Positions 21,127 through 58,259 of a DNA stretch of 62,371 nt are shown in pieces. Made by a program: the position numbers and the translations under genes. Source of the stretch: an archaeon (lineage in GTDB: Archaea; Nanobdellota; Nanobdellia; Pacearchaeales; UBA284); assembly GCA_020343435.1 (NCBI GenBank), contig CP070794.1, forward strand, positions 519,341 to 581,711, in the 5' to 3' direction. A model generated the notes under the pieces. That model was not told where the DNA came from and did no database searches. It saw only the letters and a program-made list of their open reading frames with translations. Position 1 is the first letter of the stretch. The number at the start of each line of letters is the position of its first letter.

Positions 21127-21170
21127 AATTTTCATTAATTTTATAAATATATAATGAAACACTCTTAATT

Positions 21171-21701
21171 ATGTTTGGACTTCCAAAAGTTTTTCCACAA
21201 AGTAAAGAATTAAAACAAATTATAGAAAGCCACGGCTGGACAACATATAGAATTCCTCATGGAGAAAGACCAATCTGGTACCAAATTGAAAGAGAAAACC
21301 CAGCAGAAACATTTGAGGTCGGGGACCATTCTTATTTTTTTGTTCCAATTCCTAACCAAAGGCAAACATGGAGAGATGCTTATGGTATTACTAAAAGTCT
21401 TGGACCATCTTTAGAGGTAGATCCAACTTATGAGGGATTATTAGCAGTTTATCATGGGTCTCCAAAAGCAGGGAGAGCTAATGAAGTATTATTCACAAGA
21501 ATGATTTTACACGAAGGAAACCAAACAGCTCTTTTTAGCCCCAAAATTCCCCAGTATCCAGATCCAAGTAAAGCTTTACTAAGAACAGATTTATTATTGC
21601 CAATATTTGAAGATCATTTTAGGATCATTACAATGGAAGATCTAAAAAGAGAACCAAAAATAGCGGTCGTTATTGTAGATGATAGACACGAAACTAACTG
21701 A
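21171..21701 (+). CDS. hypothetical protein (176 aa), atypical composition
   Basis: Clean ORF. TTTATAAAT sits about 25 nt upstream, suggesting a leaderless mRNA. P/G/R/E/H-rich and unlike its neighbours. No family recognised. Confidence 0.65.
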   Translation: MFGLPKVFPQSKELKQIIESHGWTTYRIPHGERPIWYQIERENPAETFEVGDHSYFFVPIPNQRQTWRDAYGITKSLGPSLEVDPTYEGLLAVYHGSPKAGRANEVLFTRMILHEGNQTALFSPKIPQYPDPSKALLRTDLLLPIFEDHFRIITMEDLKREPKIAVVIVDDRHETN

Positions 21702-29488: not shown

Positions 29489-30040
29489 TTAATTAGGACT
29501 CTGTGTTCTTCCTTCTCCCCAAAATGGAACAGGCATTACTAAGACCACCTTCATATCAATTCCAAATTCAGTATCCACCCTGTCCTGTCTGTATCCTTCT
29601 CTTCTAAGTTGTTCTACATATTGCTGAACATCATTAAAATCTGGGTAGGTTCTTATTCCTTCTAAGAAATCTTCATAAGCAATCCCTCCGTGCCCTCTAA
29701 CCAAATTTCCAACATAACTATCATTTAATGTAAATGCTGGAACAGGCACACGGTTTCCTTTAATCACCATTGTTGGGATCTCCCCATTCAAAGCACGAAG
29801 AAGACTATATAGATTTCTTTTAAGATCATCAACTGTATCTCCCTTTTCTTTTCTTTTTAAAAGAGCATAAACTTTATCCCTTTTTAATATACCCTCTATA
29901 TGGCCTGGCTCAACAACATCATCCATAGTACATTTTCCTCCTTCTTTGGTCATAGTCATGCCAGTATCATAAATCCCAACATTTCTATCTCTAAATGCTC
30001 TTACTATTCTACTTGTCATCATTGGGGAATATTTTTTCAT
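29489..30040 (-). CDS. hypothetical protein (183 aa), atypical composition, leader-motif gene A
   Basis: Clean ORF, G/R/V/D-rich, preceded by the conserved leader. No family recognised. Confidence 0.7.
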   Translation of the reverse strand: MKKYSPMMTSRIVRAFRDRNVGIYDTGMTMTKEGGKCTMDDVVEPGHIEGILKRDKVYALLKRKEKGDTVDDLKRNLYSLLRALNGEIPTMVIKGNRVPVPAFTLNDSYVGNLVRGHGGIAYEDFLEGIRTYPDFNDVQQYVEQLRREGYRQDRVDTEFGIDMKVVLVMPVPFWGEGRTQSPN

Positions 30041-30076
30041 TTTAATTCAGAATAAGGTCTGAGGCCTATCACCTCT
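30041..30076 (-). promoter_or_regulatory. conserved 5' leader copy A (anti-16S box + hairpin)
   Basis: Gene-sense: AGAGGTGATAGGCCTCAGACCTTATTCTGAATTAAA followed by ATG. A TATA-like TTCTATAAAG lies about 19 nt upstream. Confidence 0.6.
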
Positions 30077-30112
30077 ATCTCTACAATTTTAAGAACTTTA
30101 TAGAACTTTCTT

Positions 30113-30676
30113 TCAAACAATTTTTTCAATTTTTTTCAAAGTTTCTTTCAGATTCCCGACTTTTCTAGTTTCAGGAATTCCGAAAATAGGAATTTTAATT
30201 TTATTTTTCCCAAGTTTTTTAATTAAAATTTCAAAAAATACTCCTTTTTCTTTAGATAAAACCGAAATAGATCCTTTTCTTACTGGAGTAACATCCACAC
30301 CACAACTAGGACTTCCATTAACTCCCAAAATAAAAGTAATTTTGTAATTATTTTTTTGATAATCTTTTATTTTTTTAATCAAATCATCACTAATTTTAGA
30401 GCAAGTTTTTCTATAACTTAAAGTATCATACCTCTGTTTTGTATCATCTCCTAATGGCCTTCCAATACCTAATTCTGCTTGTTCAGGACAAGGAATTTGA
30501 ATAATCCCAATTTTATGCTTTTTTAATAAATTTATTAAAGGGTCAATCATTGCAGGAAAATTCGCAACACCCTGAACTTTAGAATTCTGATTTATAAGAC
30601 AATGAGCAAGAAATGCAATTTTTCTACTTCTTTTATCTTTCATCTCTCTCTTGAATAACACATTTATTTTCAACAC
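30113..30676 (-). CDS. DUF523-like (TudS-type) Cys-cluster protein
   Basis: AHCLINQNSKV, IPCPE and GSPSCG resemble the three-Cys DUF523 pattern. The start is probably the internal Met at 30643. Confidence 0.45.
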   Translation of the reverse strand: MLKINVLFKREMKDKRSRKIAFLAHCLINQNSKVQGVANFPAMIDPLINLLKKHKIGIIQIPCPEQAELGIGRPLGDDTKQRYDTLSYRKTCSKISDDLIKKIKDYQKNNYKITFILGVNGSPSCGVDVTPVRKGSISVLSKEKGVFFEILIKKLGKNKIKIPIFGIPETRKVGNLKETLKKIEKIV

Positions 30677-30947
30677 AACTACAATTGAAATCTACACGTA
30701 AATAAGTATAATATACTGGCCCCAAAAAAGTCCATTTAGCACTACTACAACTTTCATCTTTGTTTATACACCCACAAGCTGATTTTACACAATCAGACTT
30801 TATAGAACATTGAATATTGCAATTATCTCTATTCCTATTCCATCCAGCACATTGTGTAGAACTTATAGCTATCCGAATACCTACATAAGCAAACCAGAAT
30901 ACAATAATAGCAATAACAATAATAAGTATAATCCTGCCCGTTTTCAT
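30633..30947 (-). CDS. membrane-anchored Cys-rich small protein
   Basis: N-terminal TM helix followed by more than 10 Cys in about 70 aa. Confidence 0.55.
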   Translation of the reverse strand: MKTGRIILIIVIAIIVFWFAYVGIRIAISSTQCAGWNRNRDNCNIQCSIKSDCVKSACGCINKDESCSSAKWTFLGPVYYTYLRVDFNCSCVENKCVIQERDER

Positions 30948-30981
30948 CTACCTCTAAGAATTCTTAGAGATTTAAACTTAA

Positions 30982-31350
30982 CTAAGATATAATATAGTTA
31001 AGAATAGTTCCAATACCATACCCCACAACTCCCATAAAAATGTATGCACCGAGTTTTATAGTTTCTGAGATCCCAGCACTAGTCCAATAAGCCCATGCTT
31101 TATACCCATGTTCTCTTCTCTCTCTATGCGCTTCCCATAAGAATGCTCCAGGTACCAATAACAAACCATCACTTTGTATTGTTCTACTAACTAAATTATC
31201 ATTAGGACCATAAAAAACAGTATCTGTTAGTTTATCAAAAAGTTTATCAGATCTAGAACGAGTATCTTCTAAAGGAGCTCTTCTTGGGATTACATTTCCA
31301 GGGATTACAAAAGCTGTTCTATCTGTTGCAGTTGATCCACTTTTATCCAT
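30982..31350 (-). CDS. hypothetical protein with C-terminal TM helix, atypical composition
   Basis: Clean ORF with a CACAATAAT-TTTTATAAG box upstream. No family recognised. Confidence 0.6.
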   Translation of the reverse strand: MDKSGSTATDRTAFVIPGNVIPRRAPLEDTRSRSDKLFDKLTDTVFYGPNDNLVSRTIQSDGLLLVPGAFLWEAHRERREHGYKAWAYWTSAGISETIKLGAYIFMGVVGYGIGTILNYIIS

Positions 31351-31402
31351 CTTTCAACAATTATTCTTTAACTTATAAAAATTATTGTGATTAAGAAAAG
31401 GT

Positions 31403-31816
31403 TTAACCAGAAGATTGTTGTTCTCGTATTTGTTCCACAATTTCTCTCCATCGCCTTTCATAACGTCCAACTGCGCACATCCCCCCAACATAACCTCCGA
31501 ATCCAAGAATACCTAAACCAAGAATAGTAAATGCTCCTTGTGTAGTTGTCCTATGGCCTTTCTCCTGCATTTCATCTCTTTCCACTTCAGTAATGTATCC
31601 ACCATTATACTGTCTAGATAATCCCGCATCCTGAATAATGGGTACAACTGAAAAAACTACAGCTGCAAGTCCAGCTAAACCCGCTGATACAAGACTCACT
31701 AAAGCAGCATTTTTAATTCTTCTTATTACTTTCTCGTAATATTGTTTCCTCTCTTTTAAATAATTTATATCAGCAGAACCTTCTTCAATTACTCTCATAG
31801 AACTTTCTTCACTCAT
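31403..31816 (-). CDS. hypothetical membrane protein (2 TM), atypical composition
   Basis: Clean ORF with a CGCAATAAT-GCTTTTAAATTT box upstream. Confidence 0.6.
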   Translation of the reverse strand: MSEESSMRVIEEGSADINYLKERKQYYEKVIRRIKNAALVSLVSAGLAGLAAVVFSVVPIIQDAGLSRQYNGGYITEVERDEMQEKGHRTTTQGAFTILGLGILGFGGYVGGMCAVGRYERRWREIVEQIREQQSSG

Positions 31817-31875
31817 GCTTTAACAATACTTCCCAAATTTAAAAGCATTATTGCGGTTAATTGATTTATTTTTAT

Positions 31876-32481
31876 CTAAGAATGATCAGGATCAATCTTT
31901 GTAGAAATTTCAACATCTCTTATTGGGTGCTTTGCTAAAAAATCGTTGAGTAATCTAAGACGTGACTTACCAACAACTTGAGCTTTTCCTGGAGTAAAAG
32001 CATATTGGCCACTAACTAACCTTTCATTTAAAGAATCTATTTCTTTTTGAGGATTTTTTACTAATTTTGCAATATCAATATATCCAGGAAATCCATTGTA
32101 TACTCTATATGTATCTGAAGCTCCAACTACTCTATCATTATGGTGAATAGTAAACCAAAATCTAAGCATTTCAACATAATTTTTTAAATAAGCTTGTTTA
32201 ACTTCAAAAGGAAGGGGCTTTTGCTCATTCATTCTCTTAACAATTTCTTCTGCCCTATCTTTTGTACTCATATGATCTAAAGTGATTATTTGTGCAGACT
32301 TTTCAACAAATTGTGGTAAAGGAATATATTCTCCTGGAGAAATTAGAATTTCTAAAGTACTAAAACCCCTTGCAGGACTCTTAATTAAAGTACATTTAGA
32401 AAGATCTAAACCATAAATTCTTTGATAGACTACATCCATCACACTTTCCACATCATACTGTTCTGTTGTGGGTGTTGCCAT
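31876..32481 (-). CDS. hypothetical protein (201 aa), atypical composition, leader-motif gene B
   Basis: Clean ORF preceded by the conserved leader. No family recognised. Confidence 0.7.
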   Translation of the reverse strand: MATPTTEQYDVESVMDVVYQRIYGLDLSKCTLIKSPARGFSTLEILISPGEYIPLPQFVEKSAQIITLDHMSTKDRAEEIVKRMNEQKPLPFEVKQAYLKNYVEMLRFWFTIHHNDRVVGASDTYRVYNGFPGYIDIAKLVKNPQKEIDSLNERLVSGQYAFTPGKAQVVGKSRLRLLNDFLAKHPIRDVEISTKIDPDHS

Positions 32482-32517
32482 TTTAATTCAGAATAAGGTC
32501 TGAGGACCAACACCCCC
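32482..32517 (-). promoter_or_regulatory. conserved 5' leader copy B
   Basis: Gene-sense: GGGGGTGTTGGTCCTCAGACCTTATTCTGAATTAAA followed by ATG. It shares 27 identical nt, including the ATG, with copy A. Confidence 0.6.
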
Positions 32518-32605
32518 AATCTTATGATTTTAAGGGACTATATAAATTTTATTGAGATTTATTTAGCACAATAATCTTTAAAAATTAATAGAGGATCAAG
32601 GTAAC

Positions 32606-33196
32606 ATGAGAACTGGCGGGGGGCATCAACAATTAGCTGAGAGAATACTTAATAATGGATATAGTCCTGAGCCTTCAGCTCATTTAAACACTTTAACAGG
32701 TCAATTAAATAGTTGTCCAGAAGGATCTAAGATAAGACCTAAACTTGAAGCTGCTATTTCCTTTCTTGAACAGACATATAAGTTACAAAGACCTAAAATA
32801 GTAAGTAAAAAAGAGAGAGATAAAATTAGAAGAGATATGCATAGAATCATAAGAAGAGATAAAGGATCTTTTGATTCTAGTTATAGAACAAAAAGATTTG
32901 AAGAACCAGAGAGTACAGGAGTAAGACCAGCAATTATTAGACTGAGACTTGACAGATATCGTTCAGAACATTCTAGAGTTACTAGAGCATTTTGGGAACA
33001 ATTTTCAAAAGAAGAATTGCTAGATTATCTAAACAGTATTCCTGGAACAAATGTCACTAGATTTAGACTTGAAAATAGAGCATTAGCAGGGGTTCTTAAA
33101 AATAAATACAGTATAGATCTAACAAGTCATTTCGCTAGTAGAAGAGCTAGAGAAAGAGAAGTTGGTTTTAAAAGGAATCTTTATGATGGATGGTGA
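32606..33196 (+). CDS. hypothetical basic (Arg-rich) protein (196 aa)
   Basis: Clean ORF with CACAATAATCTTTAAAAATT upstream. No family recognised. Confidence 0.65.
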   Translation: MRTGGGHQQLAERILNNGYSPEPSAHLNTLTGQLNSCPEGSKIRPKLEAAISFLEQTYKLQRPKIVSKKERDKIRRDMHRIIRRDKGSFDSSYRTKRFEEPESTGVRPAIIRLRLDRYRSEHSRVTRAFWEQFSKEELLDYLNSIPGTNVTRFRLENRALAGVLKNKYSIDLTSHFASRRAREREVGFKRNLYDGW

Positions 33197-33198
33197 TT

Positions 33199-33369
33199 TT
33201 ATTTTCTAGATTCTTTAAATGCAAAATACATAAGAATTATAAGCAATGCATTAAGAACCACAAGCAAAAATATTCCTGATGCTTTTGATAGAGTTGGAAG
33301 TTTGAATAATACATAAACTGTATAAATAATCACAAGAATAGCTGCTCCTAAAAAATTACCTCTTACCAT
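33199..33369 (-). CDS. small hydrophobic protein (56 aa, 2 TM)
   Basis: Hand-translated: MVRGNFLGAAILVIIYTVYVLFKLPTLSKASGIFLLVVLNALLIILMYFAFKESRK. Below the ORF-track cutoff. Third gene of a tandem trio. Confidence 0.4.
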   Translation of the reverse strand: MVRGNFLGAAILVIIYTVYVLFKLPTLSKASGIFLLVVLNALLIILMYFAFKESRK

Positions 33370-33376
33370 CTTTTTT

Positions 33377-33526
33377 TCAAGTATAGTTAGTATTTAGATC
33401 TTTCTTTAAAAGATGAATTAATCTAAAATTTTTTCTTTTTAATAAGACACCTAATAAAAATCGAATTAGATTAGCAATTCCTATAACTATAAGAACTATG
33501 CAAATCCAAAATAAAATTTGATTCAT
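33377..33526 (-). CDS. small hydrophobic protein (49 aa, 1 TM)
   Basis: MNQILFWICIVLIVIGIANLIRFLLGVLLKRKNF... A paralog is at 34652..34741. Confidence 0.4.
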   Translation of the reverse strand: MNQILFWICIVLIVIGIANLIRFLLGVLLKRKNFRLIHLLKKDLNTNYT

Positions 33527-33529
33527 TTT

Positions 33530-33706
33530 TTATTTAACCTTTAGCAACCTAAACTTTGAAGATCCTATAAAAACAATCCCTAAAATCACAAGAAATATAG
33601 GAAAAGTACTTTCTCCCATAAAATCTCCAATAAAAAGAACTACTGCAGCTATCATAAATGCTAGTCCAAAAAAGAACATAAATTTATTGCCTTTATTTTG
33701 ATCCAT
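33530..33706 (-). CDS. small hydrophobic protein (58 aa, 2 TM)
   Basis: MDQNKGNKFMFFFGLAFMIAAVVLFIGDFMGESTFPIFLVILGIVFIGSSKFRLLKVK. A TATA-like box lies about 20 nt upstream. Confidence 0.4.
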   Translation of the reverse strand: MDQNKGNKFMFFFGLAFMIAAVVLFIGDFMGESTFPIFLVILGIVFIGSSKFRLLKVK

Positions 33707-33797
33707 GTATTCCTAAGAATTATTACAAATTTAAAGTTAACTACAAAACAACTTTTATCACAACAATTATTATAAATTCAAATGTAGTTAAAATAAT

Positions 33798-34187
33798 ATG
33801 GGAGAAGGGGATTATGTAAGAAATCCAAACAGTATCTGTACTATAGCTAGAGAAGAAAGTGATAGATTATTAAGAGGACTAGAACCAAAATACGCGTTTT
33901 TAATTCCTTTCAAAGACCCAGCTACTGGCGAAGAAAGAGTAGATATAACTGAACAACCTCCTTACTTAGCAAAAGGAAGGTTTGTTTATAGAATAGTCCA
34001 ACCAGAAGAACTTGGGAGGTTAGGCAAAGCGAGAGTAGTGAATCCCCGCACTCATGGAGAAAGAGAAACAGACTTTCCAAGAGCAGCTTTAATTCAAGCA
34101 ATTCATTTCCATATTCTTGGGCACAGAACTGGTCTTATGCGAGAAACCCAAGGTACAAAACGTCCAGCACCAGTATACCAACCATAA
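33798..34187 (+). CDS. hypothetical protein (129 aa), atypical composition
   Basis: Clean ORF with CACAACAATTATTATAAAT upstream. Confidence 0.65.
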   Translation: MGEGDYVRNPNSICTIAREESDRLLRGLEPKYAFLIPFKDPATGEERVDITEQPPYLAKGRFVYRIVQPEELGRLGKARVVNPRTHGERETDFPRAALIQAIHFHILGHRTGLMRETQGTKRPAPVYQP

Positions 34188-34245
34188 CTTTTCTTATTGT
34201 TATCACTTAATAGTAACATTTATAAACTCTATTTCTCACAGAATT

Positions 34246-34629
34246 ATGATTAAAATGAAAAGAATATTATATGGTCTAGGAATTACAGGAGCTTTGATAG
34301 CTACTGCTTACTCTGCAGTCCCAAGAGTTCAATCATATGTTCAAGCACGTTTACCAGGACTTTATCAAATGGTAGATAATGTTACTTCTTTGTTTCAAGA
34401 CACTAAGAAAGGATTATGTGAGTTAGGTGGAGTTGATGATCTATCTGAACTAGAGAGAAGCACCGGCGATATAATTAGAGATGCTATTGCTGGAGCTGGG
34501 TTACTTGATGAAAAGATTGGAATTCCAAGCATCAGAGAAGTTACGTCTCCTGAGGCAGCAGAACAACAAAGACAGAATATCAAGGCAAGTTTGGAAGCTG
34601 CAGTTGATGCTGGTTTATTTAAAGAATAG
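34246..34629 (+). CDS. hypothetical protein with N-terminal signal/anchor helix
   Basis: Start moved to ATG 34246 (MIKMKRILYGLGITGALIATAYSA). The track start 34117 overlaps the previous gene. TTTATAAA lies about 27 nt upstream. Confidence 0.6.
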   Translation: MIKMKRILYGLGITGALIATAYSAVPRVQSYVQARLPGLYQMVDNVTSLFQDTKKGLCELGGVDDLSELERSTGDIIRDAIAGAGLLDEKIGIPSIREVTSPEAAEQQRQNIKASLEAAVDAGLFKE

Positions 34630-34651
34630 AACTAAACTCTCTATTTTTTTA

Positions 34652-34741
34652 TTACCTTAAAAATCTTAATAAAAATAAAATTAAATTAGTAATCCCTATA
34701 GCTAGAAGAACTATACAAATCCAAAACAAAATTTTATTCAT
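34652..34741 (-). CDS. small hydrophobic peptide (29 aa)
   Basis: MNKILFWICIVLLAIGITNLILFLLRFLR. ATGA overlap with the stop of 34738..35679. The first 20 residues and the DNA resemble 33377..33526. Confidence 0.35.
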   Translation of the reverse strand: MNKILFWICIVLLAIGITNLILFLLRFLR

Positions 34742-35679
34742 TTTTTGTAATCCAACTTATCAGCAAAACCTTCAGGAACTTGGCTCAAATCAACTTCAGA
34801 ACCAAATACATCTTTAGTAACATTTAACAGTTTATCTAATAAAACCTGTGGGTCAATTCCAACAAGTTTTGCAGTAACTAAATCAACATCAATAGAATTC
34901 TTGCCTCCAACAATCAAATTAAGATTTTCTTTTAATCTTCCATTTAAAGGGGCGGGACCATCTATTGCTCTAAATATCCCCTCATTAATAAAAACAGAAT
35001 TAAAAAGAGCACGGTAAATTTTATTCATATCTAAAACTGAAAAAGGAAGAATTTTCATTTCATGATCATGATATCTTGGGGATCTTTTTGGGTCAGGAAT
35101 CAAACCAAAGAGATTTTTAGTAGATAGAGTCATCCCCACATCAGCAGTTTTAATTTTTGCAAAATCAATAAAAAAAGGATTTTTTAAATTCCAGAGTTTT
35201 TTAGGAACAGTTGCATATAATTCTTTATGTTTTACAGGAGAAAATTTCTTTTCCACCAACTCTTGAATGATTTTAGGATCAACTACTTCATTTTTCCAAC
35301 ATTCTTCAGTAATATTAACATATTCTACATTATATTTTTTAAAAACATCTTTTATACCAGTAGATTCAAGAAACCATTTATCCTGTTCTCTTAGAAAATC
35401 TTTTTTATCATCCATATTCTTTTCATCAACTAACTCTTCTCCTTTTTCTAGTAGTGGTTTGTTTCTCCAAGCAGTATGGCTTTCAATAACTATTTTTCTT
35501 CCATTTAAACATCTGAGAATCCATTCTAATGGTGTGGCTTCTGTAAAATGTCCTTTAGAAGCTTCTACCCAATTAGGTTTTATAATAAAAGTATCTCCTT
35601 GTAAGTTTAACTGATCTATAAACTTCTTAAACTCTTCAAAAGTTTTTACTTTTTCAAAAAATACATTACCAACTCTCAT
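34738..35679 (-). CDS. DUF362-like protein
   Basis: 313 aa. The N-terminal FIIKPNWV resembles the DUF362 signature. Background-like composition. Confidence 0.55.
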   Translation of the reverse strand: MRVGNVFFEKVKTFEEFKKFIDQLNLQGDTFIIKPNWVEASKGHFTEATPLEWILRCLNGRKIVIESHTAWRNKPLLEKGEELVDEKNMDDKKDFLREQDKWFLESTGIKDVFKKYNVEYVNITEECWKNEVVDPKIIQELVEKKFSPVKHKELYATVPKKLWNLKNPFFIDFAKIKTADVGMTLSTKNLFGLIPDPKRSPRYHDHEMKILPFSVLDMNKIYRALFNSVFINEGIFRAIDGPAPLNGRLKENLNLIVGGKNSIDVDLVTAKLVGIDPQVLLDKLLNVTKDVFGSEVDLSQVPEGFADKLDYKK

Positions 35680-35753
35680 CAGATCTCAAGAATTCTAAAA
35701 GATTTAAGTGTTTCGCTAATTACAATAATTATTAAAAACATTAAAGAGATTAA

Positions 35754-36194
35754 ATGAAAATGGATCTTGATGAAGTAACAGAAAGGGCAACAATAAAGTT
35801 TGGTAAGCCAATAAGTTGGACTGAAGCTGAAAGAATGTTGGGTTATGTTGCTCAAAGGACCGGTTTAGAGATGGGTTATACTGTTGAACAAAGAAAAAGA
35901 ATAAAACCAGATAAAACAGATCCAGATTCTATTCCAGAACCACAATATGATTTTGTGATAGTTGAAGCAGGAGCAATGCATAATGAAGAATTGGCTTGTG
36001 TAGGAACTTTTTTTCTTACAATCCCCCCGGAAGAAAGAGGAGATGGAACAATAGCTGATAGATTAGTATTCCCTACCCTTCCTGGGATGCCTCTTAAAGC
36101 GCATGGTGAGAAAGCAATAAAATTGTGGGACGATGTAAGAACAGCAGTTGCAGAATATTTTCAACAACCACAAGAATCTCCTGAATCACAATAA
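35754..36194 (+). CDS. hypothetical protein (146 aa), atypical composition
   Basis: Clean ORF with TACAATAATTATTAAAAA upstream. Confidence 0.65.
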   Translation: MKMDLDEVTERATIKFGKPISWTEAERMLGYVAQRTGLEMGYTVEQRKRIKPDKTDPDSIPEPQYDFVIVEAGAMHNEELACVGTFFLTIPPEERGDGTIADRLVFPTLPGMPLKAHGEKAIKLWDDVRTAVAEYFQQPQESPESQ

Positions 36195-36225
36195 TCCTTT
36201 TAAATTTGAAAATAATTGTTGAAAT

Positions 36226-36789
36226 ATGGCACCATATGCAGTATTAGATGGAGGAAAAGATAGCCAAGGAGACCCAAGTGGAAGACCAAAAGAAGAAAGA
36301 GAAGGTGGTCGTAAGATATACTTCAAAAGGAAAATCAGAGAAAGAGAAACTCAAGAACCGCCTAGAAGGGGAACAATGGTATTTTATAATGGGATAGACG
36401 AATCATTGCGGGATGTTGATATAGTTAGACCAGGGAATTGGTATGTTGTTGAATCTGATCAAAAAGGACAAGAAAGACAAAGAAGGACCCATGGGTTATC
36501 AATAAAGATAGTTGGAAAAGGCCATTTAGGATACTGGCAATATGAGTTAATAGTTAAAAAAAACGGCTTAATTGTAGAAGGGCATTATCCTACAGAACCA
36601 TGTCAAATTGAAGATCTTGCAAGGATAGTAAAGCGAAGTATAGCAGATTATGGTCCAAAAGAAGGTGTTAATATTGGAGAGGTAGTGAGTACTTATGAGT
36701 ATTTTAGACCTGGAGAAAGGGATTTGTTATTCCAACTTCTCAAAGAGGAACAAGAGCCTAATGGTAATAAAAGATTAGCACCAGTATAA
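36226..36789 (+). CDS. hypothetical protein (187 aa) with disordered basic N-terminus
   Basis: Clean ORF. CACAATAATCCTTTTAAATT upstream overlaps the previous stop codon. Confidence 0.65.
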   Translation: MAPYAVLDGGKDSQGDPSGRPKEEREGGRKIYFKRKIRERETQEPPRRGTMVFYNGIDESLRDVDIVRPGNWYVVESDQKGQERQRRTHGLSIKIVGKGHLGYWQYELIVKKNGLIVEGHYPTEPCQIEDLARIVKRSIADYGPKEGVNIGEVVSTYEYFRPGERDLLFQLLKEEQEPNGNKRLAPV

Positions 36790-36840
36790 AGATAATTATC
36801 TTTTCAGTTAATTATTTAAACAAATAAAAATGAATAATTT

Positions 36841-36881
36841 AGAGGTGATAAAAACCTCAGATAGAGTTCTGAGTGGAAAAA
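36841..36881 (+). promoter_or_regulatory. conserved 5' leader copy E
   Basis: AGAGGTGATAAAAACCTCAGATAGAGTTCTGAGTGGAAAAA followed by ATG. TATA-like ATTATTTAAAC lies about 17 nt upstream. Confidence 0.6.
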
Positions 36882-37310
36882 ATGATATTAGAACCAAATT
36901 ATAAGCATTTAGCCCATCAAATACTTGCTCGTGAGAGAAGATATACTCAAATATGTAGTCCTACACCAAAACCCATCACAGCATTTTGGCAAGAAGGTAT
37001 ATACAATGGAGCATATCAAATACTTTTTCCTACACAACCAGAAATTGCTTTAGTGACAAAAAGCAATAACCCTATAATCCCAGAAGTTCTTGAAGAATTG
37101 CGTAGACAAGATCCTGGAAGATTAGAATTAAATGTAGACCCAGAGATTAAATTTGATCTTTCTCCAAGATATATACTGAGATTATTTTTAGATGAAAAAA
37201 GATTAGGTATGGTAACAGAAGAACAAAAAGATTTTGCAGAAAGAAATCTTTCAAGATCCTCTATTGTTATTTTAAATTTTAGTCTTGGTTCAGATCCAAG
37301 GGATAATTAA
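36882..37310 (+). CDS. hypothetical protein (142 aa), leader-motif gene E
   Basis: The track ORF begins at GTG 36873, inside the leader. ATG 36882 is preferred by analogy with the other four copies. Confidence 0.65.
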   Translation: MILEPNYKHLAHQILARERRYTQICSPTPKPITAFWQEGIYNGAYQILFPTQPEIALVTKSNNPIIPEVLEELRRQDPGRLELNVDPEIKFDLSPRYILRLFLDEKRLGMVTEEQKDFAERNLSRSSIVILNFSLGSDPRDN

Positions 37311-37371
37311 TACATTTATAAATTTAATGTAACACAACAATCCTTAAAACTTAAGAAAGAATTCTAAAGTT

Positions 37372-38397
37372 ATGCCTTTTGATCCCATAGCACTTGCAAA
37401 AGAAACAGAAGCAAAAGCTGTTGACGGAAATAAAAGAAAATATAATATTTTCAGAGCTGAAAACTATTATGGCCAAATAGCAACTGCTCGTGGAACCGGT
37501 TGTAATTCAAGATGTGTTTTTTGTTGGATAAATCCTTCAAGAGATGATCCTACAAAATATGGAACTTTCCATACTCCACAACAAGTTTATGATAAACTTG
37601 TAGAGGTTTCTTCTAACGAATTTGGAAGATTAATGTTAGCTAATACAGCAAGGATCTCAGGATGTGAACCTACAATAGGAAAAGACCATTTGCTTTCTTT
37701 AATAGATTTACTTAAAACAAAATATGATTCTACTCCAACTCCAGAAGTAGGTTTTAAGCAAGAATTTGCATCTTTCTTACTTGAAACAAACGGTTTTTTA
37801 TTAGGAAACGATCCAAGTTTCATTAAAGCATTAAGAGAATTTGGAGATTATGTTTATGTAAGACTTTCTTTTAAAGCAGGAACCCCAGAAGCTTTAGAAA
37901 GAAAAACTGGTGTAGATAGAAAAGCTTTTGAATTACCTTTCTTAGCTTTAAGACAACTAGCTACTTATAAAATGAATTATAGAATTGCAGCAATGTCTTC
38001 TGATCCAGTTTTAATGCCTCAAGAAGAAAGAAGAGGTCTTTTAGAATCCATTACAAACACTTTGGGTTTTCTTCCAACAATAGATGAAGAAGATGCACAT
38101 CCTTTTGGAATAACTGTTAAAAGATTAAAAGCTGCAGGAATAATCCAAGATGCAGAAGAATTAGGAAAACAAAGCTATGAAGATCCTCATTCTTCCTTAA
38201 CTAGAGTACAAGATACAAAAGTAAGAATAAGAACTGACGAAGGAGTAATAACCACAGACCCCCCAGAAGCACTTAGAAGATTAATTCATGATTCTGAACT
38301 AAGAACTAAAGAAGTTGATAGAACCCGTTGCGCATCTTGTAGAAATCCTTGGCATGGTTATGATATTGAAGATGATCTTGATCCAAAACTAGGTTAA
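37372..38397 (+). CDS. radical SAM domain protein
   Basis: CX3CX2C cluster motif (GCNSRCVFCW), a GGE-like SGCEPTIG and a C-terminal extension of about 100 aa containing CASC. Confidence 0.75.
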   Translation: MPFDPIALAKETEAKAVDGNKRKYNIFRAENYYGQIATARGTGCNSRCVFCWINPSRDDPTKYGTFHTPQQVYDKLVEVSSNEFGRLMLANTARISGCEPTIGKDHLLSLIDLLKTKYDSTPTPEVGFKQEFASFLLETNGFLLGNDPSFIKALREFGDYVYVRLSFKAGTPEALERKTGVDRKAFELPFLALRQLATYKMNYRIAAMSSDPVLMPQEERRGLLESITNTLGFLPTIDEEDAHPFGITVKRLKAAGIIQDAEELGKQSYEDPHSSLTRVQDTKVRIRTDEGVITTDPPEALRRLIHDSELRTKEVDRTRCASCRNPWHGYDIEDDLDPKLG

Positions 38398-38552
38398 CCT
38401 TTCACCTTAGGCATTATCCAAAATGCAATAATCGCAGCAATAATAAGAATTATTAAAAATAATAATGGAGAGATTATTTTAAAACCTATAAAAATCATAT
38501 TAAGAACTAGAATTATTACAATAATCAAAGAGATTATCTGCTTAGCTCTCAT
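38394..38552 (-). CDS. small hydrophobic protein (52 aa, 2 TM)
   Basis: MRAKQIISLIIVIILVLNMIFIGFKIISPLLFLIILIIAAIIAFWIMPKVKG. Lies 30 nt downstream of gene D. Confidence 0.4.
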   Translation of the reverse strand: MRAKQIISLIIVIILVLNMIFIGFKIISPLLFLIILIIAAIIAFWIMPKVKG

Positions 38553-38582
38553 TTTAATCTCAACAAAAAGAAGAATTTAAAG

Positions 38583-39158
38583 TTATCCTTTAGGAACTCG
38601 AATCATAAAGTCATCTTCTCCACTATCTTCTCCCTCTAAAGAAATTCTCCCTAAATTTGCAGCCCCTGTAGCAATTATATCTTTTTTTATCGCAGCCTTT
38701 CTTGTATGAGGAAGGACTCTCATCAATTGAGCATTAATGGCACCAACCAAATTTCTAAATGCAGTTTCTAATCTGTCATGATGACTACAAGAAGGAGGAA
38801 CACGTTCTAATCTTAATATTTCTTCAAGAGCTTCTAACAATTCTCTTGGAGTCCTTCCAACCCCACAACAGGAGATTTGGGAGTATTTGTTTGGCAATTG
38901 ACAAGACCATATACCTGCTGGAGAGGGTGTATAGATCACAGCCATACCCTTTTTATGAGGAGTTGGTCTCATTCTTTGAACAGACCCAACATATTGCCCT
39001 CTTTTATCCCCAACCTCTTCTTCAATAGTTGTTAATTGATAATCATCTACAAAAGTTCGAAACCCTTCTTCAAGATCGAGCTGTGCTATGCCTTCTATTC
39101 CTGTTGAAACCAACATCCCATTTGAAAAATAAATTCTGTTTTGGCCTTTTAATCTCAT
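38583..39158 (-). CDS. hypothetical protein (191 aa), leader-motif gene D
   Basis: The track start GTG 39191 lies inside the leader; ATG 39158 is preferred. Cys pairs present (SCQL..SCCG, SCSHH). Confidence 0.65.
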   Translation of the reverse strand: MRLKGQNRIYFSNGMLVSTGIEGIAQLDLEEGFRTFVDDYQLTTIEEEVGDKRGQYVGSVQRMRPTPHKKGMAVIYTPSPAGIWSCQLPNKYSQISCCGVGRTPRELLEALEEILRLERVPPSCSHHDRLETAFRNLVGAINAQLMRVLPHTRKAAIKKDIIATGAANLGRISLEGEDSGEDDFMIRVPKG

Positions 39159-39195
39159 CTTCACTCCCCAGAATTTGCTGAGGCTAACCACCTCT
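39159..39195 (-). promoter_or_regulatory. conserved 5' leader copy D
   Basis: Gene-sense: AGAGGTGGTTAGCCTCAGCAAATTCTGGGGAGTGAAG followed by ATG. TTTTATAAATAG lies about 18 nt upstream. Confidence 0.55.
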
Positions 39196-39257
39196 AAAAT
39201 TATTAACTATACCCTATTTATAAAATTAACTAAAAAAAAGAAAAAAAGAAAAAGAAA

Positions 39258-39536
39258 CTAAAATCTTCTTCTATTAAATTCTCTCTTAGGTCTATCTCCC
39301 ATAGGCTTTGCTTCAGAAACCTTAATTTCTCTACCATCTACAGATTTTCCATTAAAGTCTGATATAGCTTTTTTAGCAGCCTTATCATCATCTATAGTTA
39401 CAAATCCGAAACCCTTTGATCTTCCTGAAAACTTGTCTTTGATCAAAGTAGCTTCACTAACTTCATAACCTTCGAAAATCTTTTTCAAACCTTCATCGTC
39501 AACACTAAAAGGTAAATTTCCTACATATAACTTCAT
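39258..39536 (-). CDS. RRM-domain RNA-binding protein
   Basis: RNP2 LYVGNL, RNP1 KGFGFVT and a basic tail. 92 aa. Confidence 0.85.
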   Translation of the reverse strand: MKLYVGNLPFSVDDEGLKKIFEGYEVSEATLIKDKFSGRSKGFGFVTIDDDKAAKKAISDFNGKSVDGREIKVSEAKPMGDRPKREFNRRRF

Positions 39537-39684
39537 TTTTATCCTCCTGATCTTTTATATAATCTAAATTAAGAATAAGCTCTTAACACGAATACTTTTC
39601 ACGAAATTTAACTAACATAATCCCTCCTACCCATAGGAGTTTATAAAGTTAATGTTTTTAAAAGACAACCTACTAATCTAAAAA

Positions 39685-39903
39685 ATGAGAGAAAATACTA
39701 AAAAAACCCCAAAAACTTGGAAAATTATCTTAATAGTAATCTTAGTCATCATACTATTGCTTCTTTTAAGATCTGCACCAACAGATTGCGAGCCTCCATT
39801 AATGGATCATGGAGATGGTTGCTGCATGGATGCAAATAACAATAATCTTTGTGATAGTGTTGAAAAAATTAATACAACCAACCAAACCAATTTATCTACT
39901 TAA
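39685..39903 (+). CDS. small membrane-anchored Cys-containing protein
   Basis: N-terminal TM helix followed by C..CC..C. 72 aa. Confidence 0.45.
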   Translation: MRENTKKTPKTWKIILIVILVIILLLLLRSAPTDCEPPLMDHGDGCCMDANNNNLCDSVEKINTTNQTNLST

Positions 39904-39911
39904 CTAAAAAT

Positions 39912-40241
39912 TCATTCTTCTTCATCCCAAAGTTCTCCAAAACTAAACGTCTCTCTTAAATTAGCTATAGCTCTTCTACTTGCAATATCCTCTTCCCATT
40001 GTGCTTGGGCGCTTAAAACATCCCACAAAAAATAAGGGATATCACATCTCCAAATCTCCCCTTCAAACAAGGGAGCTCTACACATTCCTCCATCATAACC
40101 AGTAATTACTTCAACAAGATGATGTCTTGCTTGTTCTGGGGGCATAGGCCAAACCCGAGAATATAGACCACAATACTTTTCAAAAATAGTTTGTTCAAGA
40201 TCGTCAGTTGGATTAGCAATAAGGTAGTTCCCTCTGTGCAT
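39912..40241 (-). CDS. hypothetical protein (109 aa), atypical composition
   Basis: Clean ORF with CACAATAATTCTTTTAAAC upstream. W/E/R-rich with an acidic tail. Confidence 0.6.
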   Translation of the reverse strand: MHRGNYLIANPTDDLEQTIFEKYCGLYSRVWPMPPEQARHHLVEVITGYDGGMCRAPLFEGEIWRCDIPYFLWDVLSAQAQWEEDIASRRAIANLRETFSFGELWDEEE

Positions 40242-40281
40242 ATTATTTGGTAAGGTTTTTAGTTTAAAAGAATTATTGTGT

Positions 40282-54635: not shown

Positions 54636-55850
54636 TTATTCGTATCTTAGAGCTTCTACTGGTTTCAATCTTGAAGCTCTCACAGCTGGTAATGTTCCAG
54701 CAACACATCCAACAACAAAAGAGAACACTAATGCTCCTATTATTAACCATGCTGGGAATGAAACTTGTAATAAAGAACTTCCTAAAGCACCATATGCAAT
54801 TGCTTGAGCCATTTTTCCTAATCCAATTCCTATAGCAACTCCAATTAACCCACCAACTAATCCAAGCATTCCAGCTTCAATTAAAAATATACTTAGAATA
54901 TTAGAATTCTTTGCTCCAATAGATTTCATAATCCCAATTTCTCTAGTTCTTTCTAAAACAGAAGTATACATTGTGTTCATAATCCCAATTCCACCAACTA
55001 AAAGAGAGATTGCAGCAATACCAATCAATACAGCTTGTAAAATACCCAAAATATTCTGAAAACTCTCAAATAATTGTTCTGCAGTCTGAACAGTAAATGT
55101 TTCTTCACCTTCTTTTTCATCTCTAAACCTTCTTAACTCCCTTGCAATTCTCTCAGCAATTTCAACAGGATCTTCTCCTTGAATAACTTTAGCATAAAGT
55201 TGTGTCTCTTCTTCTCCCAAATTCATAATATCTCTCATAACTTCTTTAGAAATTAGAACAGACTCATCATCATAAGGATTTCCAGTACTTTCTAAAACTC
55301 CAACAACTCTAAACTCAACCCCCTCAATCTCTATTTTCTTACCAAGATCTACTGGCTTTTCCCATAATCCCCCAGAAACATGACCATAACCAACAACAGC
55401 CTTGTATTTATCATCTGGTTTTAGAAATCTTCCTTCTTCAATCTTAAAAGCCTGAACTTCTTCAAATCTCATATCATCTCTCGGGTCCACACCAGATATA
55501 AAAGCAATTTCTAATTCATCTCTATACTTTATAACTCCTGTTTTAAACACAATTCCTACAACTCCAAAAACTCCTTTCGTCTTTTCAACAACTTCCATAT
55601 CTCTTGTTGTTAATAATAATGATTGACCTGAAGCTGATCCTGGTGGTCCCAGGGATTTACTCTGGATGATTACCTTATCTTTTCCCAGATTCTCAAATTG
55701 TTCAGCTACAGAAGATTCTAATCCCTGTCCTATGGAAATTAAAGCAACAACAGCAGCTATTCCAATAAAAATTCCTAGAATTGTTAGAAAACTTCTTGTT
55801 CTTCTGTTTCTTAGATTTTTAAAAGACAGATTAAAATAATCTATTATCAT
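54636..55850 (-). CDS. ABC transporter permease, FtsX/MacB type
   Basis: N-terminal TM helix, a large extracytoplasmic domain and three C-terminal TM helices with the FtsX pattern (GIMKSIGA). Confidence 0.88.
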   Translation of the reverse strand: MIIDYFNLSFKNLRNRRTRSFLTILGIFIGIAAVVALISIGQGLESSVAEQFENLGKDKVIIQSKSLGPPGSASGQSLLLTTRDMEVVEKTKGVFGVVGIVFKTGVIKYRDELEIAFISGVDPRDDMRFEEVQAFKIEEGRFLKPDDKYKAVVGYGHVSGGLWEKPVDLGKKIEIEGVEFRVVGVLESTGNPYDDESVLISKEVMRDIMNLGEEETQLYAKVIQGEDPVEIAERIARELRRFRDEKEGEETFTVQTAEQLFESFQNILGILQAVLIGIAAISLLVGGIGIMNTMYTSVLERTREIGIMKSIGAKNSNILSIFLIEAGMLGLVGGLIGVAIGIGLGKMAQAIAYGALGSSLLQVSFPAWLIIGALVFSFVVGCVAGTLPAVRASRLKPVEALRYE

Positions 55851-57034
55851 TATGAATTATTCATTTGTTGTAATCTTTTTCTTCTTCTCTTCTTAGCACT
55901 AAAGAAAATAATTAGGAAAACAATAATAATTATAATTACAATTAGAGCCCAAGGAAATCTAGGAACCAGACCAAGAGCTTGAGCTTCTCTAATTGTGTAG
56001 ACCTTAACATTAAATGTTTCATAATCTCTATATTCTTTATTAGAAGAATCTTTATATTCTAATTCAAATTGCAAAGATATTCTCTCTTTTTTAGGAAGAA
56101 TTTCAAATTCTACAACCTCATAGTCATCAGATTCTATGTTCCCAATATATTCATATCCTTTTTTGAAATCATAATCAGGAGAATCTAGTAATCTAATCTC
56201 AGCAAAATTAACTTCAGCCAATCCTTTATTCAGTATCTTAACTTCTATCTTAGAATTCATTCCAATAACTAAATTGTTTTCTTCAATAGTTATAGCAATA
56301 TCAGGTTCTTCAAAAACTTCTAATGAGATTGTATCACTTTTTTGATAAGAATTCCCATAAGCATCAGAGTAAGAGATTAGTAATGGTATTTTGTAAATTT
56401 GAATCTCTGCAGTTGAAAGAACATCCACAGTGAAACTTACTTGTCTTTCTTCACCATCATTTAATTCATCAATTCTCCTTTCAGTTACACTTTCAGGTGC
56501 AAAAGGTAATTCTTCTATTGCTAATTTTAGAATAATTTCTTTTATTTCTGATTCAGCAGTATTTTTTACTTTTATTTTAATATCAGCTTGATCTCCTGGT
56601 GCTACTTTTTCAGGATTTGTTATAACATCAGTAACTTGCAGATAAACTTGTCTTGGCGCAATAGTTATCTCAAAATCTTCTTTAAAAGAATCATCTCCAA
56701 GCTTGTACTCTAGACTTACTTCTTCAATTCCTTCCCTTGCTGAACCATCTACATAAATTTTATATGCAATAGTTTTAGTTTCTCCTGGTTCAAGTGAAGA
56801 AATGAATCTATCTTTTCCAGATGCTAAGGTAAAATCATTTCCAACATCTAATTCAAATGAAATATTCTCTAATAAAGCAAATTGATGATTAGTTACTTCA
56901 AATTCTAAATCAACTAAATCTCCGGGATGGACTGGATAAGGATCATAAGTTAAAGAAACATCTAATCCATCTGCTGCCACAGTTGGGACTAGAAAAACTG
57001 CTAACAACATCATTAATAAGATTGTTTTATTCAT
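55850..57034 (-). CDS. secreted repeat (CARDB/COG1361-like) protein with C-terminal sorting-signal-like tail
   Basis: Start set at the Met of signal peptide MNKTILLMMLLAVFLVPTVAA. Repeated beta-sandwich-like modules. Tail: VPRFPW, then a TM helix, then KKRRRKR. Confidence 0.7.
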   Translation of the reverse strand: MNKTILLMMLLAVFLVPTVAADGLDVSLTYDPYPVHPGDLVDLEFEVTNHQFALLENISFELDVGNDFTLASGKDRFISSLEPGETKTIAYKIYVDGSAREGIEEVSLEYKLGDDSFKEDFEITIAPRQVYLQVTDVITNPEKVAPGDQADIKIKVKNTAESEIKEIILKLAIEELPFAPESVTERRIDELNDGEERQVSFTVDVLSTAEIQIYKIPLLISYSDAYGNSYQKSDTISLEVFEEPDIAITIEENNLVIGMNSKIEVKILNKGLAEVNFAEIRLLDSPDYDFKKGYEYIGNIESDDYEVVEFEILPKKERISLQFELEYKDSSNKEYRDYETFNVKVYTIREAQALGLVPRFPWALIVIIIIIVFLIIFFSAKKRRRKRLQQMNNS

Positions 57035-57266
57035 CTTTCCTACCAGCACGCCACCTATAATAAACAGGAACCAAACTAGCTGGAAGCCATTTTTCAGGTT
57101 TCCTAATATTAGATCCTTCAACAAATCTTGTCAGACCCTCTCTTGCTCTATGAGAGATATATCTAGCTGTTTCAGTAGCTCCCCTAATCTTCTCTATCAA
57201 AGGTGTTCTTTCCACCCACTCTCCCAAAGCTCTCATCTTATCTCTTAAAGTATATTTTCCTTTCAT
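57027..57266 (-). CDS. hypothetical small Arg-rich protein (79 aa)
   Basis: ATGA overlap with the ATPase stop and an 8-nt overlap with the next start, suggesting translational coupling in an operon. Confidence 0.45.
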   Translation of the reverse strand: MKGKYTLRDKMRALGEWVERTPLIEKIRGATETARYISHRAREGLTRFVEGSNIRKPEKWLPASLVPVYYRWRAGRKDE

Positions 57267-57964
57267 TTTACAACTCCGTCTTTAATATGAACTATCTTTT
57301 TAGCTTTTTTGGCGATAGATTGATCATGTGTAATTATAATAATTGTTTTTCCTTTTTTGTTCAAATCCTGTAATAGTTTTAAAATATCTTTTCCTGTTTT
57401 AGAATCTAAATTTCCAGTAGGTTCATCAGCCAATATAATCTTAGGATCATTTGCTAAAGCTCTTGCAATAGCAACTCTTTGTTGTTCTCCTCCACTTAAT
57501 TCTCCAGGTTTATGATGCATTCTATGTCCCAATCCAACTTGTTTTAATACCAGTTCAGCTCTATCAGATCTTTCTCCAGCAGAATATCCTTGAAATAACA
57601 TTGGTAACATAACATTTTCTTTTGCAGATAATGTTTGAATTAAGTTAAATTGTTGGAATACAAATCCTATTGTCTTCCCTCTTGTTTGAGCTAATTCAGA
57701 TTCAGTCATATGAGAGATATCTAAACCTTCTAATAGAATTCTTCCACATTCAGGAACATCTAACGCCCCTATTAAATTCATTAATGTACTTTTTCCAGAT
57801 CCTGATGGACCAACAACAGCTAAAAAATCACCTTCTTTAACTGTAAGAATAGCATTTTTTACAGCTTGAACTGCTGTATGTCCCTTTCCATAAGTTTTAC
57901 AAACTTTATCTAGTTGAATTGCTTGTTTCATTTTTAAGTTTTTTTCATCCAGATTTTTTTCCAA
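57263..57964 (-). CDS. ABC transporter ATP-binding protein (MacB/LolD-like)
   Basis: Walker [10 protein letters not shown], signature LSGGEQQR and Walker [12 protein letters not shown]. Confidence 0.92.
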
Positions 57965-58259
57965 TTTTTATACTATATACATACATTTTTCCATTTATCC
58001 TAACTCCTAAATCCTTTAAGAAACAACGAATTGCTTCCTGACCCTGAGAAAAGACCTCTGGAGGGATGGTTTCCTCTAAGATTCCCTCTAATTCTTTTCC
58101 GAAATCTCCACTTGTCTCAAATTCTCTTCTTTCAGTTACTCTTCCAAATATCCCTTCTTCAGCAGCTTCTTTTTCAATAGATCCTGCTTCTAAATAGTAG
58201 CCAGCAGTGAAACCATAAGCCACTGCATCGTTTTTTATTGATTTTAATATCATCGTCAT
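57945..58259 (-). CDS. hypothetical acidic protein (104 aa), leader-motif gene C
   Basis: First gene of the ABC operon, preceded by the conserved leader. No family recognised. Confidence 0.6.
   Translation of the reverse strand: MTMILKSIKNDAVAYGFTAGYYLEAGSIEKEAAEEGIFGRVTERREFETSGDFGKELEGILEETIPPEVFSQGQEAIRCFLKDLGVRINGKMYVYSIKIGKKSG

Follow-up and report, generated by a model that had tools for sequence, protein, structure and literature searches.

Small lysine-poor proteins with shared promoter and leader motifs in an AT-rich archaeal chromosome: a candidate native, lineage-specific gene set

Here we describe a group of 12 small open reading frames (ORFs) at positions 29489–40241 of a 62,371-nucleotide stretch of DNA (hereafter the window) from an archaeon of the Pacearchaeales (UBA284; assembly GCA_020343435.1, contig CP070794.1, positions 519,341–581,711 of the forward strand). 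An initial annotation, made from the letters alone, had singled them out as compositionally atypical ORFs of no recognisable family. Our results suggest that they belong to a native, lineage-specific set of small genes that would be under shared transcriptional control, with probable translational control of five genes; we put the probability of this reading at about 0.5. The pattern itself is real and far beyond chance. The proposal in the initial annotation of a co-regulated, lineage-specific module is a fair reading of it, given that the genes share expression signals, that a promoter box is conserved in other genomes and that three of the protein families are encoded side by side in a relative.

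All 12 ORFs are present at the coordinates first given, apart from a few corrected starts, compared with ~1–4 ORFs of at least 109 codons expected by chance in the whole window. On the G+C (GC) and codon-usage statistics that had been proposed as a check (computed here for the 12 candidates against the 77 other ORFs of the window; Mann–Whitney test), the candidates have a distinctly higher total GC (0.365 versus 0.306, p = 6e-6). The claim of more GC-rich DNA is thereby borne out, but the difference is confined to the first (GC1, 0.50 versus 0.40) and second (GC2, 0.40 versus 0.31) codon positions. At the third position (GC3) the candidates match the host (0.192 versus 0.200, p = 0.6), as they do in synonymous choice within each amino-acid family, with AGA as the main arginine codon in both groups. 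The GC-richer DNA arises because the candidate proteins consist of different amino acids. Lysine (K) is halved (5.5% versus 11.9%), arginine (R) is raised 1.8-fold (8.4% versus 4.7%), and glycine, proline and glutamine are raised 1.4–1.6-fold, in agreement with the first description of these proteins; glutamate, which that description also included, is barely enriched (1.16-fold). ORFs 31876 (GC 0.318) and 36882 (GC 0.317) have only a weak GC shift. A criterion that is independent of the initial choice of genes, i.e. K/(K+R) below 0.5, picks out 11 of the 18 genes in the region and 2 of the 70 outside it (Fisher test, p = 6.5e-8). Of the more remote genes that had been said to share the trait, 21171 does so, but those of the operon 54636..58259 do so only weakly (K/(K+R) 0.51–0.79). 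The AT-rich genes reported between the candidates are indeed background genes; they encode a TudS-related desulfidase (30113), a DUF362 protein (34738) and a protein with an RNA recognition motif (RRM; 39258).

Since GC3 and synonymous usage are those of the host, the candidates do not appear to be recently imported GC-rich DNA; in a recent island the silent sites should differ from the host's, and here they do not. A recent transfer out of an organism with higher GC, or an assembly chimera, might be suspected from the total GC and from a protein make-up typical of ~50% GC organisms, but is highly improbable. Besides the silent sites, (i) background-type genes are interleaved with the candidates; (ii) in the exhaustive search of 1.84 billion representative proteins, none of the seven candidates queried had a homolog from a well-sampled cellular lineage; and (iii) trait and background genes are joined on a 1.9 kb contig from a different, independent assembly, and read depth (~3–7x in the best sample) is alike over the cluster and its flanks. 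The setting is that of a chromosome, which counts in favour of a native gene set: the window (30.7% GC) lies on a 648 kb contig and contains archaeal ribosomal-protein operons, a 5S rRNA, five tRNAs, both PolD subunits and Orc1/Cdc6. Its DNA is present in several sediment metagenomes.

The trait genes also share expression signals. Most genes of the organism are leaderless, with a TATA-like box 24–32 nt before the ATG. One of two further signals, termed here class A and class B, is found at 13 of the 15 trait genes and at none of the 73 others (p = 9e-14), and the association holds as well for the objectively defined low-lysine set (p = 1.6e-8). In class A, the box CACAATAAT (up to one mismatch) is followed by two bases and then TTwTAAA. 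This layout is found in eight genes, with the box at −39 to −31 and the TATA element 23–28 nt before the ATG. The end of the box is 30 nt from the ATG in seven of them; in the eighth (35754), the distance is 24 nt to the first ATG and 30 nt to that called in the database (Table 1). The geometry of box, TATA and ATG implies leaderless mRNAs. With up to one mismatch and at this fixed distance, all eight cases in the window lie at trait genes and none at background genes. An A-rich sequence resembling the archaeal transcription factor B (TFB) recognition element (BRE) occurs at two mismatches before several background genes, but the CAC-bearing box is confined to trait genes, CAC being the specific and invariant part of the motif. 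We take the AATAAT of the box to fit the archaeal BRE consensus RNWAAW and to sit at the TFB-binding position.

Class B is a longer and unrelated signal. A TATA element is followed after ~20 nt by a conserved leader of ~40 nt with the layout AGAGGTGAT..CCTCAGA..TTCTGAG..AAAATG (short form, GAGGTGAT..CCTCAGA..TCTGAG). It precedes 29489, 31876, 36882 and 38583, and also 57945, which is 18 kb away; the leader regions are 30038–30110, 32479–32551, 36812–36884, 39156–39228 and 58257–58329, respectively. A search with the core gave four matches at up to two mismatches, against 0.19 expected, and inspection of the sequence upstream of 36882 revealed a fifth copy, which has a longer loop; the five copies can be aligned with one another. 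In every one of them, CTCAGA is complementary to TCTGAG (once via a G–U pair), and the hairpin that they could form shares its CUC with an alternative pairing to an upstream GAGG(UGAU) resembling a Shine–Dalgarno (SD) element. This SD-like element lies ~27–33 nt from the ATG, too far for an ordinary SD site unless the hairpin shortens the distance. These features suggest that the class B leader may act as a translational switch. No known RNA family was matched by the leaders at E ≤ 1, apart from two chance snoRNA matches. The only repeats in the region are the promoter and leader motifs and a small-peptide paralog described below.

Table 1. Features at 29489–40280 of the window, and two outlying members of the set (aa, amino acids).
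Coordinates	Strand	Feature	Remarks
29489..30040	-	ORF, 183 aa, soluble, lysine-poor	Class B leader; residues 91–156 resemble an 89-aa L005 gene
30058..30075	-	Class B leader core GAGGTGATAGGCCTCAGA	TATA ~25 nt upstream, ATG ~25 nt downstream
30113..30947	-	CD3072-family TudS-related desulfidase and 104-aa membrane protein	Background-type, no trait
30982..31350	-	ORF, 122 aa, hydrophobic C-terminal end	Class A promoter
31381..31389	-	Class A box CACAATAAT	30 nt before ATG of 30982
31403..31816	-	ORF, 137 aa, two predicted transmembrane helices	Class A promoter
31847..31855	-	Class A box CGCAATAAT	30 nt before ATG of 31403
31876..32481	-	ORF, 201 aa, soluble	Class B leader; 56-nt leader 80% identical to that of 29489
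32499..32516	-	Class B leader core GGGGTGTTGGTCCTCAGA	
32567..32575	+	Class A box	30 nt before ATG of 32606
32606..33196	+	ORF, 196 aa, arginine-rich, strongly basic (net charge +16)	
33759..33767	+	Class A box CACAACAAT	30 nt before ATG of 33798
33798..34187	+	ORF, 129 aa	Highest GC of the set (0.40); K/(K+R) = 0.25
34246..34629	+	ORF, 124–127 aa (database start 34255), N-terminal hydrophobic anchor or signal	TATA only; singleton
34738..35679	-	DUF362 gene	Background-type, no trait
35721..35729	+	Class A box TACAATAAT	24 nt before ATG 35754, 30 nt before database ATG 35760
35754..36194	+	ORF, 144–146 aa (database start 35760)	Uncharacterised family A1
36187..36195	+	Class A box	30 nt before ATG of 36226
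36226..36789	+	ORF, 187 aa, N-terminal ~50 residues G/P/R/E-rich and of low complexity	Singleton
36842..36861	+	Class B leader core GAGGTGATAAAAACCTCAGA	Upstream of 36882
36882..37310	+	ORF, 142 aa	Uncharacterised family A2
37333..37341	+	Class A box CACAACAAT	30 nt before ATG of radical SAM gene
37372..38397	+	Radical SAM protein, 341 aa, CxxxCxxC	Class A promoter; low-lysine make-up
38583..39158	-	ORF, 191 aa at corrected start	Class B leader; singleton
39177..39194	-	Class B leader core GAGGTGGTTAGCCTCAGC	
39258..39536	-	RRM_1 RNA-binding protein, 92 aa (E = 4.5e-19)	Ordinary SD site, no trait
39912..40241	-	ORF, 109 aa, acidic (net charge −11)	K/(K+R) = 0.11; class A promoter; singleton
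40272..40280	-	Class A box	30 nt before ATG of 39912
21171..21701	+	Outlying member, 176 aa, family A3	TATA only in the window
57945..58259	-	Outlying 104-aa ORF heading the MacB/FtsX ABC-transporter operon	Class B leader (core 58277–58294); composition mildly atypical

The 12 ORFans have no match in Pfam, NCBIfam, PHROGs or PDB sequences. PADLOC assigned 0 families to the 10 proteins submitted to it (i.e. nine of the 12 ORFans, without 34246, 35754 and 36882, plus the radical SAM protein), so no anti-phage defence model was matched among these ten. In an exhaustive HMMER search of the 1.84 billion representative proteins with seven queries (34246, 35754, 36226, 36882, 38583, 39912 and 21171), three queries recovered families, namely A1 (35754; ~40 representatives), A2 (36882; ~18) and A3 (21171; ~55), and the other four matched only themselves. 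The statement that no family can be recognised for any of the ORFs thus stands for Pfam, NCBIfam, PHROGs, PADLOC and PDB, but 35754, 36882, 21171 and probably 29489 have uncharacterised homologs. Those of 35754, 36882 and 21171 lie in archaeal neighbourhoods (18–55 representatives each), as would be expected of lineage-restricted families, and one A1 member is labelled Candidatus Woesearchaeota by NCBI. Members of A1 and of A2 align well, yet the alignments are too divergent for pattern-based locus searches. Paralogy among the ORFans was rejected, as no mutual similarity was found. The nominal GTG start of ORF 38583 falls within its own leader motif, and the start of this minus-strand ORF is therefore placed at 39158 rather than 39191. 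From its charge, the 32606 protein possibly binds nucleic acid.

AlphaFold models of A1 (predicted local distance difference test score, pLDDT, 83.7; predicted template modelling score 0.77) and A2 (pLDDT 90.4) are confident, which indicates that these are real proteins. Neither family has a relative in Pfam or PDB (nor does A3), and neither model has a fold match in PDB (best E at least 0.06, TM-score below 0.4); the A2 model also has none among viral structure predictions (BFVD). The models therefore point to possible new folds for A1 and A2. A resemblance of A1 to helix-grip (Bet v 1/START) folds was considered and found not to be significant (TM-score at most 0.39, E at least 0.06). Of the several membrane anchors that had been noted, three remain, i.e. 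the two transmembrane helices of 31403, the C-terminal segment of 30982 and the N-terminal hydrophobic segment of 34246; the other nine proteins look soluble. With hydrophobic segments in only 3 of the 12 proteins (Kyte–Doolittle scan), the suggestion of a surface system finds no backing.

Low lysine is a family-wide property: ~90 family members, from hosts of 29–47% GC, contain 5.6–6.1% lysine and 5.3–7.4% arginine, and the window copies are the same, whereas other proteins of the window contain 12.0% lysine. The candidates are thus close to what is usual for proteins, and the skew lies in the background. A possible explanation is that these families hold ~6% lysine in every host, while the rest of the proteome would have drifted to 12% under AT mutation pressure, as the silent sites of the same genes would have done in full. 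According to PMC3129676, which cites Palacios & Wernegreen (2002), constrained or highly expressed genes hold on to GC-rich amino acids under AT pressure, and the make-up of the candidates agrees in part with this tendency.

We then compared the surroundings of homologs in other genomes. The closest sampled relative (L005/L006) is represented by 2.2 kb of 35% GC carrying a tight, same-strand array of small genes. The array consists of an A3-family member, a gene for 89 aa with similarity to 29489 (28% identity over 67 aa, E = 3e-7), a gene of unknown family, an A2-family member that shares 48% identity with 36882, and a further two unknown genes, the second of them with a class A box. Three of the families are therefore adjacent on one strand in this relative. 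The exact box recurs at the same distance in L007–L009, before the A3-family gene and its upstream neighbour, and in L005, L006 and L017. In distant genomes, A2 is found between genes for an AIRS-domain protein and diphthamide synthase, or beside PolB in a same-strand array with a family-B polymerase; A3 between TRAM and Ogg genes; and A1 beside proteasome and aCPSF1 genes. No second family was found within 10 kb at any distant homolog locus. The possibility, raised in the initial annotation, that the homologs belong to housekeeping families that never co-occur is hence only partly borne out, as they lie singly amid housekeeping genes in distant relatives but co-occur in the closest sampled ones. 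Genome-collection scans with the DUF362 gene and with the A3 trio gave no match, and the sole match of a metagenome scan with the A2 pair was a contig already found. An exact look-up of window proteins returned no record. This is a lineage without a close sampled relative.

Some of these loci provide observations of their own. In a Woesearchaeota metagenome-assembled genome (L016, 2341–5208), an A1-family gene abuts orthologs of the MacB/FtsX pair of the window (E = 1e-115), and the MacB/FtsX operon of the window (54636–58259) is headed by the class B ORFan 57945; a link between the small proteins and this transporter is possible. A 93-aa unannotated gene near RNR, NUDIX and Cob_adeno_trans genes occurs in two related genomes, with immediate flanks that differ between the two loci (L010, 6967–7248; L013, 11261–11542). 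The L010 copy has 3% lysine, 13% arginine and low GC3, and the gene may be a further member of this protein class, with no similarity to the window proteins detected.

It is unlikely that there is no module at all, i.e. that unrelated lineage-specific small genes use a generic strong promoter and owe their make-up to purifying selection or high expression. The lack of mutual similarity among the ORFans and the isolation of the distant homologs from one another would suit this explanation, as would the fact that leaderless genes with an equally spaced TATA box are the majority in this organism, that BRE-like sequences at two mismatches precede several background genes, and that highly expressed or constrained genes keep GC-rich amino acids (PMC3129676). 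It does not account for the clustering of low-lysine genes (11 of 18 versus 2 of 70), for a CAC-bearing box found only at trait genes, or for a second, longer and unrelated signal (class B) that is likewise restricted to trait genes, including one 18 kb off. Three families are adjacent in L005 and the box is conserved beside a homolog in L007. Furthermore, the highly expressed ribosomal-protein genes have neither the class A box nor the low-lysine make-up.

A foreign or viral origin, which had been proposed as one option, finds no support. Besides the host-like silent sites and the even depth, there is no tRNA gene between 23 kb and 52 kb, no att-like direct repeat flanks the region, and Pfam and PHROGs scans of the window proteins revealed no integrase domain. 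The search of viral and plasmid databases that had been suggested gave nothing: PHROGs returned nothing below E = 0.03, and no match was found by tblastn against 50,697 phage records, by tblastn of 14 candidates against 72,556 plasmids or in six IMG/VR scans. DPANN viruses are barely sampled, and these negatives therefore lower the viral reading but are weak evidence only. A subtler version, in which the genes are an old integrated mobile element or virus remnant, or part of a mobile gene pool shared by Woesearchaeota-like archaea, with equilibrated silent sites and with the box as the element's own promoter, is unlikely. It would explain several observations: (i) the tight same-strand array of L005/L006, with its small genes without Pfam matches and its signature of high GC at the first two codon positions (GC1+2) and low GC3; (ii) an A2 member on a 6.6 kb contig of almost wholly small unannotated genes, and another in an array with a family-B polymerase; (iii) a deviation in both directions, i.e. 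GC-richer genes in AT-rich hosts and lower GC3 in GC-rich hosts; (iv) variable context without conserved synteny; and (v) the four singletons among the seven exhaustively searched genes. Against it stand the absence of any integrase, replication, capsid or packaging gene among those found, the lack of matches in PHROGs, phage records, plasmids, IMG/VR and viral structure predictions, the lack of a flanking tRNA or att-like repeat, the host-like GC3 and codon choice, the separate promoter and orientation of each gene with host-type genes in between, and a depth equal to that of the flanks with no credible excision joint. On the last point, a look at strain presence and absence found fragmentary contigs at 3–7x; the few joints seen were rejected because only 20–23 nt of AT-rich sequence support each of them.

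In the reading that we prefer, the native chromosome of an AT-rich, DPANN-type archaeon with a small genome, probably related to Woesearchaeota, would be enriched here in small, mostly soluble, lineage-restricted proteins, each gene being transcribed singly under shared control and the whole forming a regulon. The box would be an extended BRE, or an operator overlapping it, to which TFB, one of its paralogs or a dedicated factor would bind, and sharing it would lead to coordinated, probably strong transcription. In class B transcripts, an anti-SD-like CCUC could pair either with the SD-like GAGG or within the CUCAGA/UCUGAG hairpin, which would result in translational control.

Several observations weigh against this reading. 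The candidates exceed the ribosomal proteins of this genome in GC1+2 (0.452 versus 0.385, p = 0.006), and expression-linked constraint is therefore not a full account of their make-up. (That they are mere look-alikes of highly expressed ribosomal proteins was likewise rejected, on their higher GC1+2 and far lower lysine.) In GC-richer hosts the GC3 of the family genes lies below that of their neighbours, a pattern that a shared mobile gene pool would also give. In more distant relatives the members of these families occur one at a time amid housekeeping genes, the box is absent from their loci, and co-occurrence is seen only in the closest sampled relatives. The predicted class B folds are not stabler than shuffled sequence (z-scores −0.1 to −1.6), and a stable leader fold was rejected on this ground. 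The signals had been described as private to the set, and this agrees with their presence at 13 of 15 trait genes and 0 of 73 others, but boxes resembling class A (CACAATAAT and CGCAATAAT, each followed by a TATA element) also lie at 27921–27929 (+) before the CYTH gene 27991 and at 40806–40814 (−) before the TspO gene 40282. Both lie at a distance of 57–62 nt from a start that has an SD site, so the box is not wholly private to the set. Finally, the case for co-regulation is drawn from sequence, a search of RNA runs having found none that contains the locus, and no member can be assigned a likely biochemical role.

The radical SAM protein, noted from the outset as the only enzyme-like member, is confirmed (Pfam Radical_SAM, 3e-12; motif CNSRCVFC), with no named subfamily scoring above 21 bits. 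Homologs with 36–53% identity come from uncultured archaea and from some bacteria, and their neighbouring genes are of housekeeping type. A cluster of the type that makes ribosomally synthesized and post-translationally modified peptides is not indicated, since homologs of ~50% identity lie beside rpS8e/LSm/rpL37e or HIT/PCNA genes with no ORFan relatives near; conserved synteny around the gene was looked for and not found. Likely iron–sulphur enzymes are frequent in this part of the window, i.e. the TudS-related desulfidase (30113–30676), DUF362 (34738–35679), this radical SAM protein (37372–38397) and a second radical SAM protein with an HMPTM-type zinc ribbon (44815–46431).

Other features of the window deserve mention. 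A seemingly empty gap of ~600 bp, 33199–33706 (−), contains three background-type ORFs for membrane peptides of 56, 49 and 58 aa, with one or two transmembrane segments each. The 49-aa peptide (MNQILFWICIVL...) has a 29-aa paralog at 34652–34741 (−), within a 104-nt direct repeat that is 81% identical. At the RRM gene (39258–39536), contig depth is raised in two samples (11.8 and 9.5 versus ~3–5), which suggests a near-identical copy shared by related organisms; RRM proteins are not known to be common in archaea. At 19635–21701, a 300-bp spacer separates the A3 gene 21171 from Orc1/Cdc6 (19635–20870), the PolD genes are nearby, and GC and AT skew switch sign. This may be a replication origin region.

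Archaeal promoters consist of BRE and TATA elements and often drive leaderless mRNAs, and regulons are known in Sulfolobus and Halobacterium that depend on alternative TFB and TATA-binding protein pairs or on operators overlapping the BRE. The class A signal resembles such promoters in its TATA-like element ~26 nt before the start, in the AATAAT directly upstream of it and in a start codon at the expected transcription start. What sets it apart from a plain BRE is an invariant CAC extension, its restriction to one class of genes and its conservation in two further genomes.

Lineage-specific hypothetical families of small proteins without Pfam or KEGG annotation are known in DPANN archaea (PMC9258230, Meheust et al. 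2022; PMC8204110, Castelle et al. 2021). Set beside these by kind, not by numbered family, A1–A3 are similar in that they have no Pfam or KEGG annotation, belong to one lineage and are conserved among its members, one A1 member being labelled Candidatus Woesearchaeota. By contrast, a dozen such genes lie here within 11 kb, with two shared expression signals and a make-up apart from that of the proteome. Weaker AT-driven amino-acid drift in constrained or highly expressed genes is reported for Buchnera (Palacios & Wernegreen 2002) and for Prochlorococcus and marine communities (PMC3129676); in the present AT-rich genome, too, some genes retain GC-rich first and second codon positions although their silent sites are as AT-rich as those of the other genes. 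Unlike what those accounts describe, the proteins here are small and poorly conserved rather than core proteins, many are singletons, and the shift exceeds that of the ribosomal proteins of this genome. Like ORFans and islands of phage origin (Daubin & Ochman 2004, as presented in PMC3129676), the candidates are short, clustered, without homologs and of odd composition. They differ from the islands presented there in their normal silent sites, their own promoters and the interleaved host genes, and in having no integrase, tRNA, att site or viral homolog.

Nothing here yet shows a new kind of system. A dedicated, conserved transcription programme of Woesearchaeota-like DPANN archaea, built on an extended BRE (CAC-AATAAT) with a specialised TFB or other factor and a leader switch and driving lysine-poor small proteins of new folds along with a radical SAM enzyme, or else a domesticated mobile element of an undescribed DPANN kind, seems doubtful on the present evidence; under such a programme, roles in dealing with the host cell or in a starvation response would be the likeliest, and lysine sparing in an organism unable to make its own amino acids would be one conceivable case. 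For the search for genomic islands, the locus holds a caution: a GC-rich patch in a very AT-rich genome can consist of proteins that resist drift rather than of foreign DNA, and GC3 and synonymous codon usage are the check that tells the two apart. DPANN archaea have tiny genomes with a large share of genes without functional annotation, and almost nothing is known of gene regulation in these archaea. The locus offers a testable handle on both questions, as an invariant short promoter motif, which recurs in two related lineages, and a conserved leader pick out a defined set of unknown genes, two members of which have confident structure models that match nothing solved.

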